Positions 4,576 through 61,028 of a stretch of DNA of 64,000 nucleotides are shown here, piece after piece. Where the stretch lies: assembly GCA_965248755.1 (NCBI GenBank), contig OZ252149.1, positions 3,232,001-3,296,000 of the forward strand, written 5' to 3'. The stretch comes from Candidatus Latescibacterota bacterium. GTDB taxonomy: Bacteria; Latescibacterota; CBDEFO01. A program made the translations under genes and the position numbers. The notes beneath the pieces were generated by a model that saw only the letters and a list, made by a program, of their open reading frames with translations, made no database searches and was not told the DNA's origin. Each line of letters opens with the position of its first letter. Position 1 is the stretch's first letter.

Positions 4576-5577
4576 TTAATCTTGAAACGCCTCTGAATCG
4601 GACAACGAACCTGAAATATCCAGATCTGGCATTGAGGTTGAGTTTCGCTCCCTCAGTATGTCTCGTCCCGATCTAACCGCTCGGTATCCGAATCGCTCTC
4701 GCAGAGAATCGACTGCTCCTTGAAAGCGCTCCTTTTTTTCAGTTTCGTTATCCCACAAGCTCAACTGGCGGGCTGCAGGGCTCAGGTTGCCGGCACCTAC
4801 ACCCAAGAGTCGCACAGCCTGTCCTGGACTCCAGAGCTTTTCAAAGAGACCCATCGCCTCACTGTAAATCCTAAAGTCCAGATCGGTCGGCTCTCTCAAT
4901 GCAACTTGCCGCGTTAAGGTGGTAAAATCGGGCCAGCGCAACTTCAACGTGACTTTGCGGCAACTTACGCCCTTCCACCTAAGTCTCCTTCCCACTACCT
5001 CAGACAAGACAAAGAGAGTTCCCTGGAGTACATCCCTGTCAGGAACGTCGTGTGAGAAGGTTGTCTCCTTGCTCATAGACTTTTCTTCCCTTGTGGTTTC
5101 AACAGGGCTGTCGTCGATGCCTCGTGCATAGAGCGCTAACCTCCAACCGTTCACCCCAAAACGCCGACCGAAGTATTCCTCAGGCCATCTGGCAAGATCC
5201 CCTATGGTGCTGAACCCAAGTTTTCGCAGGTAACGGGCTGTTTTTGTTCCGACCCCCCACAGCGCACTGATTGGAAGAGGTGCAAGGAAGGCCGCCTCCT
5301 GACCAGGCGGCACCACCGTAATGGCATTGGGTGGTTCGACCATTCCCTGCGGACCGTTCGTCTGAACCGATGCTTTACCGACATTGTTAGCGATCTTTGT
5401 AACTATCTTGTTGGTAGCAGCGCCCAATGAACATGGTAATCCAATGTTGTCCCGGATTGAGGTCTGTAATTTCCGAGCTAACACTCCTGCCGGCTCTGCG
5501 CTATGTGATAAATCCAGAAACGCTTCATCTACCGAAAATTTCTCAACAACTGGCGTCAATGCATACAGATGCTCAAT
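4576..5577 (-). pseudogene. dinB: DNA polymerase IV, C-terminal part of a split gene
   Basis: IEHLYALTPVVEKFSVDEAFLDL (SxDE motif), LWGVG, KSMSKETTF; begins exactly at the IS left end. Confidence 0.92.
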
Positions 5578-5605
5578 CCCCCATTCGCCATATTAGACCC
5601 GAAAA

Positions 5606-7003
5606 ATGGTTGTCAAAGTCGCCAGAACATGTTATATTACAATAAATAAGACTCATAAATGGCGGATAAATATTGATCATCCAGAGGGTGAAAGAATGAA
5701 AGTAGGTTTTGATGGAGGAATAAAGCTTGAATTTCATGGTGCAAAGGTGACATCAAACGGTGGACTTCTTGCGTATCGTGACCTTGATTACGCACTGGGA
5801 TTATTTGATTCGGTATCAGCGGTTTTTACCGATAAACGCACAGGCCGTAATATCCAACATGATATATCTACTCTCCTGCGTCAATCGATATACAGCCGTC
5901 TTGCAGGATATGAAGATGTAAATGACGCCGAGCGATTATCCGTTGATCCCGTCATGCGAGCGATTACCGGAAAGAAGGACAAAGGCAGGCAAGCTGCCAG
6001 CTCCAACACGATAGGACGTTTTGAAACTGATATACTGACTCAGCATGACAATCTCAGAAACTTGTCAGATATCAATGGCAAGTGGGTTCAAAAAGCGATG
6101 AGTAAAACACAGCATCAACGAATCATTCTGGACATGGACAGTTCGGAGAGTCCGGTACATGGCCAGCAGGAAGGATCAGCTTACAACGGTCATTTCGGAT
6201 GTACCTGTTTTCATCCAGTGTTCTGCTTCAATCAGTTCGGGGATTGTGAAGGAGTCCTACTTCGCTCTGGTAATGTTCACAGTGCTGATCGTTGGAAGGA
6301 AGTTCTGGAACCGATCGTCAAGAGATACGAGAGCAAGAAGAATAGGAAATACTTTCGAGGCGATGCTGCATTCGCAAAGCCTGAGATTTATGATTATCTG
6401 GAGGGAAACGGCTATTTGTATGCCATTCGGTTTCCCGCAAATGAGATACTCTATGAAAAGATACGATACCTGCTGACTCGGCCAGTTGGACGACCGCCGA
6501 GGAAACCGATTGTATCGTTATATGAATTTCAATATAAAGCGGCCAGTTGGGATCAATCGAGGCGAGTGGTCGCCAAGGTTGAATGGCACCAAGGGGAGTT
6601 ATTCCCAAGAGTGGGATTTATCGTGACCAACATGAGCGCCAAGCCAGAAGGCGTGGTACACTTCTACAATGGCCGTGGCAGAGCTGAGCAGTGGATTAAG
6701 GAGGGCAAGTATGCTCTGAACTGGACCCGACTCTCATGCAAGCGTTTCGTCTCCAATCAGGTGAGGCTCTGGCTGTTTGTTCTGGCTTACAACTTGGGCA
6801 ACTTCCTGCGACGTTTTGTTCTTCCGAAGAAAATCAAACACTGGTCACTACGCAGCCTCCTCGTGAAATTTATCAAAATCGGAGCGAAGATTGTCAGACA
6901 CAGCGGATATATTACGTTTCAAATGGCTGAGGTTGGGATAGACAAGAGGTTATTTGCCGAAATATTATCCCGGATTGAACGATTGCGATGTTATTCTGTT
7001 TAA
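5606..7003 (+). CDS. IS1380-family DDE transposase
   Basis: GYEDVND, LDMDSS, RGDAAF, YNGRGRAEQWIKEGK motifs. Confidence 0.95.
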   Translation: MVVKVARTCYITINKTHKWRINIDHPEGERMKVGFDGGIKLEFHGAKVTSNGGLLAYRDLDYALGLFDSVSAVFTDKRTGRNIQHDISTLLRQSIYSRLAGYEDVNDAERLSVDPVMRAITGKKDKGRQAASSNTIGRFETDILTQHDNLRNLSDINGKWVQKAMSKTQHQRIILDMDSSESPVHGQQEGSAYNGHFGCTCFHPVFCFNQFGDCEGVLLRSGNVHSADRWKEVLEPIVKRYESKKNRKYFRGDAAFAKPEIYDYLEGNGYLYAIRFPANEILYEKIRYLLTRPVGRPPRKPIVSLYEFQYKAASWDQSRRVVAKVEWHQGELFPRVGFIVTNMSAKPEGVVHFYNGRGRAEQWIKEGKYALNWTRLSCKRFVSNQVRLWLFVLAYNLGNFLRRFVLPKKIKHWSLRSLLVKFIKIGAKIVRHSGYITFQMAEVGIDKRLFAEILSRIERLRCYSV

Positions 7004-7112
7004 ACTGCCACATTTTTTTGTGAGTCGATGGAGAGGTGTCTCTAATTGGAGGATTTAAACACAAAGAAAGTGATAATTCAGAGGAAAATACTATTTTAAT
7101 TGAAAAAAGTAC

Positions 7113-7140
7113 TTGTTGAAAAATGTAAAAGTGGTAATAT
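7113..7140 (+). promoter_or_regulatory. Candidate outward-facing sigma70 promoter near the IS right end
   Basis: TTGTTG-N16-TAATAT with a TG extended -10; position analogous to the ISEcp1 outward promoter. Confidence 0.3.
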
Positions 7141-7654
7141 TAATTCAGAAACAAGAATGTATCGAAATATAATCCCTCATGAATGTGATATGGGGAATGT
7201 CGGTTGTACTCTATCTTGAATTTATAAAAACTCAAAAAAGTTTTGGATGTTTTGTCTCTCTCACGTATCTATAATACGACAGTGATATAAATTTCTCATA
7301 AAGTATTTGTAAAATAGTTGACAAATACTAAATATATGTAAAATAAATAAGATATGTCATCAAAGAAAGCTTGACAAAGCTTGGGAATTGTACTATACGT
7401 ATAACAGTTACTAACATTATCCTGATTAAGCAAAGAACTTGATGACTTCTATGCGGTGTCTTTCACGAATTCTACGTAACAGCTATAGGTAGTCCTAATT
7501 TGTTTGCTGAAAAGATACTGCTATTAACTTAAAGAACTTTCATGCCGGAAGGGGAAATAGTTTCAGGCAAAGGAAAGGAGGGAGCGAAACATCAGAAAAG
7601 AGCTCCTGTATAGCAGTTGATGGCATTGTTCTTGTAAGGAGGTGATGAAACAAA

Positions 7655-8287
7655 ATGAGAGGACGAGCAGTGAAACCTTCCACGGTTCTGGCTACGATAA
7701 CTTTCGTTATCTTGGGTATCGCTGCACAAATACACGCCCAGGTGTCCGCCCCAATTATCACTAATTACGTCAGAGCGGTTGCAGTCGAACCCGGAGGGAA
7801 CGCGGTCTATGTGGGTTTATACATTGCAAGGCGTATGGTCCGATTCGCATCAGAGGACGTGGGAAACGCCGACCCGCGCTCTTTGACCATAGCGATAGCC
7901 GCCAAGGACGCCTTTGACTTTCTCGGCTCCCCCGAGGGTGAACTTGCGCTCGCTCAAGCGGCAGTCTACCTTGCCACAGCCCCTAAGAGCAATTCTGTAT
8001 ACTCCGCATATCAGATGGCCCAGGAAGACGTCCAAAAAAGTCCCTCTTTGCCCGTCCCTCTCCACATTCGCAACGCCCCTACGCAACTTATGAAAGAACT
8101 CGGATACGGAAAGGGCTACAAATACGCCCACGATTCTGAGGAAAGCTACATAGCTCAGGAATATCTGCCCGACAATCTGGCAGGTGCCAAGTACTACTAC
8201 CCCACAGAACACGGATACGAAAAGAAGATAACGGAAATGATGAAATGGTGGGAGAGCCTTAAGCAGTCAGTAGACAGGAGTCAGTAG
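7655..8287 (+). pseudogene. rarA: Chimeric ORF: signal-peptide N-terminus of a secreted protein fused in frame to the RarA/MgsA C-terminal domain
   Basis: About 54 aa signal-peptide region, then LYIARRMVRFASEDVGNADP...PKSNS...LGYGKGYKYAHD; AAA+ domain absent; junction at 7815/7816. Confidence 0.85.
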
Positions 8288-8467
8288 CCCCCGATTGAAT
8301 CTATCGGGGCTAGACAGGGCACCGCCTACCATCCCCCTTTCCTAAGAAGACATCAGTTTTTCCTCTTCAACTTTCGCAGGAAATTGTAGGGGCGAGGTCC
8401 CCTCGCGCCAAGGACTGGGTCTCCCAGCCCCTACGAAACGTTGCTTGGAACAGGAGCACGAGGTAAA

Positions 8468-9523
8468 TTGCTCGTATCCGAATTCGACTACTATCTGCCG
8501 CAAGGACTCATCGCTCAATATCCCTTAGTGGAGCGGGGCGAATCCAGACTGATCGTCGTGGACAGGCAGCGCAAAAGCATAGATCACAGGCACTTCAAGG
8601 ATATAGTGGACTACATAAATCCAGGTGATTGTCTCGTCATCAACGATATAAAGGTCCTCCTGGCTCGGCTGATAGGAAAGAGAGTTGTCACAGGGGGCAA
8701 GATCGAAATTCTACTTCTGAAGAGATTGTCGGAATCTCCGCCCACCTGGTCGGTACTGGCAAAGCCAGGAAGGTTAGCCAGATTGAACGCTCAATTTGCC
8801 TTCGGGGAGAAAGATAACGCTCTAACTGGGGAAATTGTGGAGATCCAGCCGGACGGAATCAGGACTATGCGATTTGAATGTACAGGATCGTTTGAGCAGA
8901 AATTAGCTCAAATTGGACAGGTCCCGCTCCCTCCTTACATAAAAAGATCCTCTCCTTATGATCAGGACTTTCAAAGATACCAGACCGTCTACGCAAAAGT
9001 GGAGGGAGCAATCGCTGCTCCTACTGCCGGACTGCACTTCACAGATCATATCCTCGATAGAATAAGAAACAAGGGCGCATCTGTAGTCCCCCTAACCCTG
9101 CACGTTGGACTCGGTACGTTTGCACCCGTGAAGACAGAAAGAGTGGAAGACCACACGATGCACGAAGAGAAGTACCAGGTCTTGGAAGACGCCGCAACTA
9201 TTATCAATCGTAGAAAGGGAAAGGTCTTCGCCGTGGGTACGACTGTGCTCAGGACGCTGGAGTCAACATCCCACTGTGACGGATCTGTCCACCCCGGATC
9301 AGGAGAGACGGACTTATTTATCTATCCGGGCTATAAGTTTAAGGTCGCAGACGCTCTCTTGACGAACTTTCACCTCCCCAAGACCACTCTCCTTATGCTA
9401 GTCTGCGCCTTTGGTGGTGCGACCACTCCGTGTGGAAAAGATCTTATTTTCAAGGCCTACGAGGAGGCTATAGAGGAAAGATATAGATTTTACTCCTACG
9501 GAGACGCCATGCTGATCGTGTGA
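8468..9523 (+). CDS. queA: S-adenosylmethionine:tRNA ribosyltransferase-isomerase
   Basis: EFDYYLP, PLPPYI, AAPTAGLHF, TNFHLP, YRFYSYGDAM; TTG start after GAGG. Confidence 0.97.
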   Translation: MLVSEFDYYLPQGLIAQYPLVERGESRLIVVDRQRKSIDHRHFKDIVDYINPGDCLVINDIKVLLARLIGKRVVTGGKIEILLLKRLSESPPTWSVLAKPGRLARLNAQFAFGEKDNALTGEIVEIQPDGIRTMRFECTGSFEQKLAQIGQVPLPPYIKRSSPYDQDFQRYQTVYAKVEGAIAAPTAGLHFTDHILDRIRNKGASVVPLTLHVGLGTFAPVKTERVEDHTMHEEKYQVLEDAATIINRRKGKVFAVGTTVLRTLESTSHCDGSVHPGSGETDLFIYPGYKFKVADALLTNFHLPKTTLLMLVCAFGGATTPCGKDLIFKAYEEAIEERYRFYSYGDAMLIV

Positions 9524-9526
9524 TCG

Positions 9527-9835
9527 CTACCCTGTCTTTCCGAAGTTGTCCAGAAAGATCACAAAGTCGGACAGTCCGATCTCTCCATTACCATCTAAAT
9601 CAAATTTAGGATCCCAATTAGCCGAATCAGTCGTTGTCCCGAAAGCATCCAAGAAGAGGACAAAATCTGAAAGACCTACTTCCTTGTTCCCGTCAAAATC
9701 TCCTATAAGCGAAGTGGAAGAAGGCTGGTTGGCCTGCCCTAATGTCGGCTCAGCGACTACCCAGTCTGACGATTGATGGGGGAAGTTCCCATCTCCTACA
9801 TACTGAATAGACTGTCCGGTCGGAACACTTGTGGG
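9527..9835 (-). pseudogene. 3' fragment of a secreted protein ending in paired EF-hand/dockerin-like motifs
   Basis: Open frame PTSVPTGQ...PTLGQAN...GDFDGNKEVGLSDFVLFLDAFG...DLDGNGEIGLSDFVIFLDNFGKTG*; truncated exactly at the unit boundary. Confidence 0.8.
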
Positions 9836-10107
9836 TCAATACACTGTTCGGAGGCTTTCCCATATACCAGGTGTCGCCGGGGGACAATTACTAACTCAGG
9901 ACACAGTTTGACCGCTTGAGCCATCGGTATCCCTGAGCCTATACCGAACTTTCGAGCTGCATACGAGCAGGAAGCTACTATCCCTCGACTATCAGGTTGC
10001 GCACCTACAGCGAAGGCTACACCCTTAAGGGACGGATCGCGCTGCTCTTCCACGGCGCAGAAAAAGGCATCCAGGTCAAAGTGTAATATTTTACGATACA
10101 TAGGCAT
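9836..10107 (-). pseudogene. dinB: DNA polymerase IV, N-terminal part of a split gene
   Basis: ILHFDLDAFFCAVE, SCSYAARKFG motifs; homology ends at ...YGKASEQCI. Confidence 0.92.
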
Positions 10108-59402: not shown

Positions 59403-61028
59403 CCCCCATTCGCCATATTAGACCCGAAAAATGGTTGTCAAAGTCGCCAGAACATGTTATATTACAATAAATAAGACTCATAAATGGCGGATAAATATTG
59501 ATCATCCAGAGGGTGAAAGAATGAAAGTAGGTTTTGATGGAGGAATAAAGCTTGAATTTCATGGTGCAAAGGTGACATCAAACGGTGGACTTCTTGCGTA
59601 TCGTGACCTTGATTACGCACTGGGATTATTTGATTCGGTATCAGCGGTTTTTACCGATAAACGCACAGGCCGTAATATCCAACATGATATATCTACTCTC
59701 CTGCGTCAATCGATATACAGCCGTCTTGCAGGATATGAAGATGTAAATGACGCCGAGCGATTATCCGTTGATCCCGTCATGCGAGCGATTACCGGAAAGA
59801 AGGACAAAGGCAGGCAAGCTGCCAGCTCCAACACGATAGGACGTTTTGAAACTGATATACTGACTCAGCATGACAATCTCAGAAACTTGTCAGATATCAA
59901 TGGCAAGTGGGTTCAAAAAGCGATGAGTAAAACACAGCATCAACGAATCATTCTGGACATGGACAGTTCGGAGAGTCCGGTACATGGCCAGCAGGAAGGA
60001 TCAGCTTACAACGGTCATTTCGGATGTACCTGTTTTCATCCAGTGTTCTGCTTCAATCAGTTCGGGGATTGTGAAGGAGTCCTACTTCGCTCTGGTAATG
60101 TTCACAGTGCTGATCGTTGGAAGGAAGTTCTGGAACCGATCGTCAAGAGATACGAGAGCAAGAAGAATAGGAAATACTTTCGAGGCGATGCTGCATTCGC
60201 AAAGCCTGAGATTTATGATTATCTGGAGGGAAACGGCTATTTGTATGCCATTCGGCTTCCCGCAAATGAGATACTCTATGAAAAGATACGATACCTGCTG
60301 ACTCGGCCAGTTGGACGACCGCCGAGGAAACCGATTGTATCGTTATATGAATTTCAATATAAAGCGGCCAGTTGGGATCAATCGAGGCGAGTGGTCGCCA
60401 AGGTTGAATGGCACCAAGGGGAGTTATTCCCAAGAGTGGGATTTATCGTGACCAACATGAGCGCCAAGCCAGAAGGCGTGGTACACTTCTACAATGGCCG
60501 TGGCAGAGCTGAGCAGTGGATTAAGGAGGGCAAGTATGCTCTGAACTGGACCCGACTCTCATGCAAGCGTTTCGTCTCCAATCAGGTGAGGCTCTGGCTG
60601 TTTGTTCTGGCTTACAACTTGGGCAACTTCCTGCGACGTTTTGTTCTTCCGAAGAAAATCAAACACTGGTCACTACGCAGCCTCCTCGTGAAATTTATCA
60701 AAATCGGAGCGAAGATTGTCAGACACAGCGGATATATTACGTTTCAAATGGCTGAGGTTGGGATAGACAAGAGGTTATTTGCCGAAATATTATCCCGGAT
60801 TGAACGATTGCGATGTTATTCTGTTTAAACTGCCACATTTTTTTGTGAGTCGATGGAGAGGTGTCTCTAATTGGAGGATTTAAACACAAAGAAAGTGATA
60901 ATTCAGAGGAAAATACTATTTTAATTGAAAAAAGTACTTGTTGAAAAATGTAAAAGTGGTAATATTAATTCAGAAACAAGAATGTATCGAAATATAATCC
61001 CTCATGAATGTGATATGGGGAATGTCGG
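59403..61028 (+). mobile_element. IS1380-family insertion sequence, copy 2, with 5-bp target duplication ATGAA
   Basis: Same inverted repeats as copy 1; ATGAA at 59398-59402 and 61029-61033. Confidence 0.97.
59431..60828 (+). CDS. IS1380-family DDE transposase
   Basis: Differs from copy 1 protein at one residue (AIRLPAN vs AIRFPAN). Confidence 0.95.
   Translation: MVVKVARTCYITINKTHKWRINIDHPEGERMKVGFDGGIKLEFHGAKVTSNGGLLAYRDLDYALGLFDSVSAVFTDKRTGRNIQHDISTLLRQSIYSRLAGYEDVNDAERLSVDPVMRAITGKKDKGRQAASSNTIGRFETDILTQHDNLRNLSDINGKWVQKAMSKTQHQRIILDMDSSESPVHGQQEGSAYNGHFGCTCFHPVFCFNQFGDCEGVLLRSGNVHSADRWKEVLEPIVKRYESKKNRKYFRGDAAFAKPEIYDYLEGNGYLYAIRLPANEILYEKIRYLLTRPVGRPPRKPIVSLYEFQYKAASWDQSRRVVAKVEWHQGELFPRVGFIVTNMSAKPEGVVHFYNGRGRAEQWIKEGKYALNWTRLSCKRFVSNQVRLWLFVLAYNLGNFLRRFVLPKKIKHWSLRSLLVKFIKIGAKIVRHSGYITFQMAEVGIDKRLFAEILSRIERLRCYSV

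Follow-up and report, generated by a model that had tools for sequence, protein, structure and literature searches.

The closest described relatives of the element treated here are insertion sequences (IS) that mobilise the DNA beside them. In the transposable modules (TMos) of ISPme1 and IS1247, as presented in PMC9330008 and PMC3281130, a downstream look-alike of the right inverted repeat (IR) is misread and 5-bp duplications result; IS1247 itself is listed in PMC3281130 at 1672 bp, with IR 16/13 and a 5-bp direct repeat. ISEcp1 (ISEc9), whose units carry blaCTX-M and other genes, is portrayed in PMC12589106 and PMC12116815 as a one-ended system with a fixed left end, imperfect right ends and 5-bp target-site duplications (TSDs), in which downstream genes are gained or lost in later rounds; for ISEcp1B, work quoted in PMC12116815 suggests that a terminal G is crucial. 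Here we describe a related system at a locus within 64,000 nucleotides from a Candidatus Latescibacterota bacterium (genome G000, contig C1; this whole stretch is called the window). As in the ISPme1 and IS1247/IS1247a TMos, one IS copy has mobilised variable 3'-adjacent DNA; IS and adjacent DNA lie together within TSDs in the window unit (5578-9835) and in 24 others, and the variable outer end resembles the true right end. As far as the cited accounts describe it, the capture mechanism is the published one-ended kind of ISEcp1, ISPme1 and IS1247, and is not new. Compared with ISPme1 and IS1247, this is a natural, chromosomal record in which parents and nested captures are visible in one genome; compared with ISEcp1, the passengers are ordinary chromosomal DNA rather than resistance genes, as far as examined. 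A comparable genome-wide pedigree was not found in a literature search that covered few subscription journals.

The IS occupies 5578..7203 on the plus strand (1626 bp) and has the features of the IS1380 family: a single DDE transposase (435 aa from the ATG at 5696; 5696..7003, +), a fitting length, imperfect terminal inverted repeats and a target duplication. The repeats match at 13 of 16 bases (5578-5593 against 7188-7203), the same terminal match as in the slightly longer IS1247. The transposase scored 385 bits against the NCBIfam IS1380 model NF033539 (cut-off 180) and 427 bits against PF13701. It is about 55% identical to transposases annotated IS1247 and ISKpn23, and the best identity in the plasmid collection was 58.5%; judged by sequence, the IS is a distinct element that differs from IS1247 and ISPme1. 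The genome holds 47 full copies at >99.8% identity, a count that excludes many fragments, one diverged copy (92.8%) and a partial copy where the contig ends overlap. A scan of the right end for an outward-facing promoter, which in ISEcp1-type units drives the passengers, gave one 10/12 consensus match (7144-7173, +) and 6 sites, against 2.9 +/- 1.9 in shuffles. At IS position 121 (window 5698), ATC replaces the likely transposase start ATG in 10 of the 47 copies, which belong to several passenger families. The second copy in the window (59403-61028; C1:3291403) is a simple insertion with TSD ATGAA, and gave rise to a 4788-bp capture that is now found at C1:1758445.

In the window, the IS and a 2632-bp passenger form a unit of 4258 bp, inserted in dinB between TCAAT repeats (5573..5577 and 9836..9840, both +). 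The 3' part of dinB (DNA polymerase IV; Pfam IMS/IMS_C), which includes the left TSD copy, lies at 4576..5577 (-), and the 5' part (PF00817) at 9836..10107 (-). The latter is identical at 248 of 272 nt to the dinB of G001, a genome of the same genus in which rarA and dinB are both intact, and the two halves (272 nt on the right, 997 nt on the left) add up to 1269 nt, the length of the intact G001 gene. Contigs of runs X5 and X6, from two other studies, run in a straight join across the position of the unit in dinB, and have an unfused rarA. A composite transposon would have a second IS or IS end at 9835, and none is present; the outer end falls within a coding gene, into whose tail the dinB 5' part reads out of frame, with a stop at 9796. 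Elsewhere, a 71%-identical match to the dinB 5' part (C1:1090461-1090710) suggests a second dinB-like gene.

The passenger consists of two pieces. The first (7204..7815, +; 612 bp) carries a repeated upstream element, a ribosome-binding site and a gene start, and finishes in ATGTGGG (7809..7815, +), a near copy of the true right end, ATGTCGG. The second (7816..9835, +; 2020 bp) comes from the locus of the DNA-repair gene rarA and holds the 3' part of rarA, a duplicated whole queA (8441..9523, +; PF02547) and the 3' tail of a convergent 244-aa gene (9527..9835, -); its alternative right end is TTGTGGG (9829..9835, +). The hexamer TGTGGG thus stands at both 7810-7815 and 9830-9835. A parent copy was found at C1:3849774: between the IS left end and 9835 it does not differ from the window, and beyond that point it continues into native DNA; window positions 7816-9835 match C1:3852012-3854031 at 100%, and the 244-aa gene clipped at 9835 is whole there. 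The order at this locus is rarA 5' half (...GACCC-TTTAT), IS, 612 bp, TTTAT, rarA 3' half. The 5' half ends in ...MLSAGEDPL, with TTTAT (C1:3849769-3849773) abutting the IS left end, and the TTTAT at 7816..7820 (+) of the window is the fossil right partner of this duplication. The intact rarA of G001, which has the same neighbours, reads ...GAAGACCC|TTTATATATTGC with a single TTTAT. Between rarA and queA, G001 carries an unrelated 396-aa ORF (L013:3969-5159; also in L014 and L015) that is likely another transposase.

The parent locus and the intact G001 gene together show that IS+612 bp entered rarA and that IS+2632 bp then passed from rarA to dinB. Such a serial capture had been proposed by the first-pass annotation, and its observations (the ORF switch at 7815/7816, TGTGGG at both ends, the placement of TTTAT and TCAAT) were all confirmed; the rarA 5' half that it expected beside an IS left end elsewhere in the genome is the one at C1:3849774, and its TTTAT proved to be a true target duplication. 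Because the parent locus is 100% identical through 9835 with TTTAT on both sides of IS+612 bp, and because the TCAAT duplication is joined by an exact dinB length sum, we hold it to be highly probable that IS+612 bp jumped into rarA and a copy longer by 2020 bp into dinB, with loose look-alikes of the right end as outer ends and an in-frame fusion arising by chance. In mechanistic terms, the transposase would likely pair its fixed left end with loose downstream look-alikes of the right end; the first jump duplicated TTTAT and the second TCAAT, and the donors would have been kept after each move, either by copy-in or by cut-and-paste followed by repair.

A third copy of the same lineage, at C1:1891550, comprises IS+966 bp and ends at TATCTGCC (window 8162..8169, +) with TSD CTTTA. 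Its source was either the parent copy or the window copy. All three lineage copies have the IS allele T854, present in 5 of the 47 copies. Across the genome, IS alleles do not track passenger families cleanly, which indicates an additional effect of gene conversion or polishing error. The window copy might then have been produced by IS copies recombining or converting one another, in place of a second one-ended jump, the more so as two different units, with passengers of 186 bp and 4662 bp, occupy the same CTGAC site (C1:2703516 and 2711395). Recombination within the IS swaps flanks, however, and cannot place the dinB 5' half and a right TSD beyond 2632 bp of foreign DNA, making this reading very unlikely. 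The two CTGAC sites lie in inverted repeat copies with identical flanks of 794 bp and 478 bp, and reflect either a hot spot or passenger replacement.

We also considered that the duplicated units are artefacts, collapsed or mis-joined IS repeats in a metagenome assembly. The genome is a single contig with 47 near-identical IS copies and an estimated contamination of 4.76%, its ends (C1:1-7206 and 4533530-4540735) overlap by 7.2 kb at 99.9%, so that the assembly is likely an untrimmed circle, and none of the listed contigs spans the whole unit. Contigs assembled from public runs of sample S1 nevertheless cross 7815/7816 without differences (X1 record, 7176-9835; X2 record, 7748-8170), which argues against an assembler error; S1 is possibly the source sample, and the bridging contigs are therefore not an independent occurrence of the fusion. 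The bridging contigs were made by an independent method, and stop at 8170 and 9835, the points at which the copies diverge from one another; the depth in X2 falls from 32 to 18.5 to 7.7, although depth is only a rough guide. The 25 units all end in a matching 5-bp duplication of their own, which mis-joins would not create, and we judge an artefact extremely unlikely.

The join at 7815/7816 creates an ORF of 210 aa (7655..8287, +) made of 53 donor codons, a hybrid Gly codon and 156 RarA C-terminal codons, in which a hydrophobic N-terminus (residues 1-53) gives way to LYIARR.... The Pfam match to MgsA_C spans residues 55-199 and profile positions 22-166 of 167. RarA/MgsA joins an ATPase to this C-terminal domain; the chimera has neither the AAA+ ATPase nor the lid domain nor the first 21 MgsA_C positions, the ATPase half being encoded separately at the parent locus by an ORF of 330 aa. 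Aligned with E. coli RarA/MgsA (PDB 3PVS), chimera residues 55-201 correspond to about 289-436; with a predicted export signal in front, the product is a fragment and not RarA. A phmmer alignment that reached donor residues 29-50 against RarA was taken as a chance extension. The N-terminus has a basic start and a hydrophobic stretch at residues 10-20 (11-residue mean hydropathy 2.5), and looks like a signal peptide from its hydropathy and family context. Since the ribosome-binding site AAGGAGGT of the donor is retained at 7636-7643, the same position as in paralogues, the chimera could be translated.

These features invite the reading that the chimera is expressed and selected, for instance in the form of a RarA C-terminal domain that is exported or tethered to the membrane, or by joining the separately made ATPase half to reconstitute RarA. 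The donor upstream region and ribosome-binding site are kept and the frame is open; rarA and queA share an orientation, and the captured upstream region could drive queA; the chimera occurs in three copies, two of them whole. When tblastn was run with the chimera, RarA C-terminal sequence was found at the three lineage places only, so there is no whole rarA in the assembly, yet both rarA halves are open. Against this, the copies are all identical and hence too young to show selection, the third (C1:1891550) cuts the chimera after residue 172, 21 MgsA_C profile positions remain with the other half of rarA, and rarA knockouts have modest phenotypes, as summarised in PMC5389604. Synonymous and non-synonymous differences from G001 number 19 and 20 in the rarA 5' half (289 codons) and 10 and 5 in the 3' half (150 codons); these counts reflect divergence before the insertion and are uninformative on selection of the chimera. 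No fused form was found among 30 relatives; a fusion in a relative lacking the IS would have spoken against one made by this element. Scans with junction 20-mers, an exact pattern that picks up only very close relatives, gave two chance matches in genome_contigs, neither encoding RarA (one in a transporter-like ORF), and none in metagenome_contigs. We think it quite unlikely that the chimera has been selected.

The favoured reading, that the in-frame join of signal peptide and RarA C-terminus is likely a chance by-product, is consistent with how often such joins arise. When frames with at least 30 codons before the join and at least 60 after it were scored, 1 of the 25 right junctions joined two real genes in frame, and this was the chimera; the sister unit has two frames open into antisense sequence. 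By arithmetic of orientation and frame, a coding end entering a coding target would fuse in frame 1 time in 6. If made, the chimera would be exported away from DNA, would have no ATPase and would not restore RarA; it is likely accidental and probably of no use to the cell, with the caveat that its lineage has been copied twice more, which selection could also produce. It is a newly formed gene fusion, and both of its parents can be traced. The first-pass description of the element as exon shuffling is overstated in view of the single in-frame junction in 25. A larger version of that idea makes the element a domain-shuffling machine, which captures DNA in more than half of its jumps, needs little more than an A/T-T pair seven bases before the cut, keeps its donors, and has just built and amplified an expressed, exported RarA-domain protein at the cost of the only whole rarA and one dinB; we assign this a low probability.

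The first passenger derives from a repeated family in which a conserved upstream element precedes genes with BNR/Vps10 beta-propeller matches; it includes the first 161 nt of such a gene, with a predicted signal peptide, and begins with TTGTA (7204-7208) directly after the IS. The intact secreted gene that the first-pass annotation had expected to continue beyond the junction is absent from the assembly, and a search of the genome found no source for the 612 bp at 100% identity. Among coding matches, a G001 gene comes nearest (151 of 161 nt) and continues ...YVG-IEE; a contig of run X5 shows 1 difference over the 78 bases that lead up to 7815, and continues CATTGAAG. Contigs of runs X2-X4 that continue past 7815 have 8-9 base differences and look like paralogues; run contigs of this kind show presence, not absence. 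Blast matches to the donor family stop at 7815, where its genes diverge from the window, as expected if the unit ended exactly there and not at another position. Among seven paralogues compared, five have TATGTGGG at 7815 followed by other sequence, and two are without the exact word.

Before the two jumps, the IS would have entered the repeated element upstream of a beta-propeller gene, at TTGTA. The site was probably that of a fourth IS copy, at C1:834366, which would later have been remodelled by recombination between paralogues and an adjacent deletion, with loss of the donor gene. Downstream of this copy the first 189 bp are the same, the next ~170 bp are 92-98% identical, and a different paralogue follows; it lies where G001 has a donor-type gene, a truncated fliI borders it on the left, and it shows no TSD. 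We infer this first site, rather than observe it, because the exact 612-bp donor is absent from the assembly and C1:834366 is identical over only 189 bp. A candidate interpretation of C1:834366 as a large unit in fliI was rejected: at +6154 a good end motif is followed by TCTAT, and the gene in which this TCTAT sits is uninterrupted in G001. Searches of the genome for the FliH and FliF families gave no match, nor did a scan with a FliI motif, a pattern that agrees with an adjacent deletion at C1:834366 without proving it. The flagellar cluster that ends in the truncated fliI at the IS left end (C1:811000-834365) was named by eye from translations; the 2.4 kb tested had no match in G001. Another copy of the upstream element has a diverged, older IS right end ~25 bp in front of it (C1:3036355-3036673), and older captures may have helped to spread this element.

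The 47 copies were compared for their outer ends. Fifteen have a direct 5-bp TSD at the true end, one a 6-bp and one a 4-bp TSD; 25 have passengers of 58-5734 bp closed by a TSD, and for five no TSD could be assigned. A 5-bp duplication thus accompanies 40 of the 47 (15 direct, 25 after a passenger), one of which reads better as 6 bp. The left TSD 5-mers are 80% A+T, with a consensus near N-T-W-A-W. All passengers found are on the right side of the IS, and the 25 units reduce to 18 distinct ends. Position -7 is A or T in 18/18, position -6 is T in 17/18 (18/18 if one unit has a 6-bp TSD), and a loose S-N-G-G-G tail follows, with G at -3, -2 and -1 in 10/18 each. Over the last 8 bases the ends match the true end at a mean of 4.0 positions, compared with 2.0 at random passenger positions, and over 14 bases at 5.8 compared with 3.6; in each case 0 of 5000 draws were as high. 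Individual ends match at 3-8 of 14, within the 3-12 quoted for ISEcp1B. The ISEcp1B rule of a terminal G, as quoted, does not carry over: 10/18 ends finish in G here, and the near-invariant positions are -7 and -6 instead.

The shared hexamer had been put forward in the first-pass annotation as one preferred alternative end. The part of this claim that stood is that TGTGGG is a strong end: it was used at 2 of the 15 sites reached, compared with 18 of 5026 (0.36%) for any W-T site, it differs by one base from the right end TGTCGG and likewise from the reversed left end TGGGGG (5 of 6 bases matching in each case), and 1 of 4 parent-child end pairs share a hexamer where ~0.005 per pair would be expected. 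The preference itself did not stand. TGTGGG accounts for 2 of the 18 ends and the other 16 differ from it; TCCGGG (3 of 18 ends) was used as often per site (3/14) and forms the outer end of 10 of the 25 units; the element read past 13 TGTGGG sites, and both later units did so at the first of them; and the sister unit ends at TATCTGCC. These end-use counts are small and after the fact. A fitted end profile gives p ~0.005 for identity over the last 6 bases in a given pair of ends, and p ~0.54 for at least one such pair among 18, so that the shared TGTGGG is real but weaker than it appears. TGTGGG thus mimics the true end TGTCGG well but is neither dedicated nor preferred; its standing as the end of this element is largely refuted, and we regard a dedicated second end as improbable.

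Four nested second-round captures were found, in which passengers went from 612 to 2632 bp, 612 to 966, 186 to 1177 and 186 to 274. For 17 of the 18 ends, a parent copy that continues past the end is retained, the exception being the 612-bp end. This retention fits a copy-in pathway, and also cut-and-paste with repair from a sister chromosome. With its 25 captures, 18 ends, four nested rounds and 17 of 18 parents kept, the pedigree yields a testable end rule and is consistent with a donor-keeping pathway, and the value of the locus lies in this in-genome pedigree and end rule more than in the chimera.

Several other copies showed distinct histories. The copy at C1:755330 and 12 related copies make up a 13-copy family from one parent, and the unit of IS+186 bp ending in AATCCGGG has made eight jumps and behaves like a new fixed element. 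The flanks of one TSD-less copy (C1:3959959) are ~505 bp apart in G001 (L015:10561-11066), a gap that fits an adjacent deletion made by the IS. Another copy of the same IS later inserted into a captured passenger at C1:3746991-3753026, producing a 4-bp duplication.
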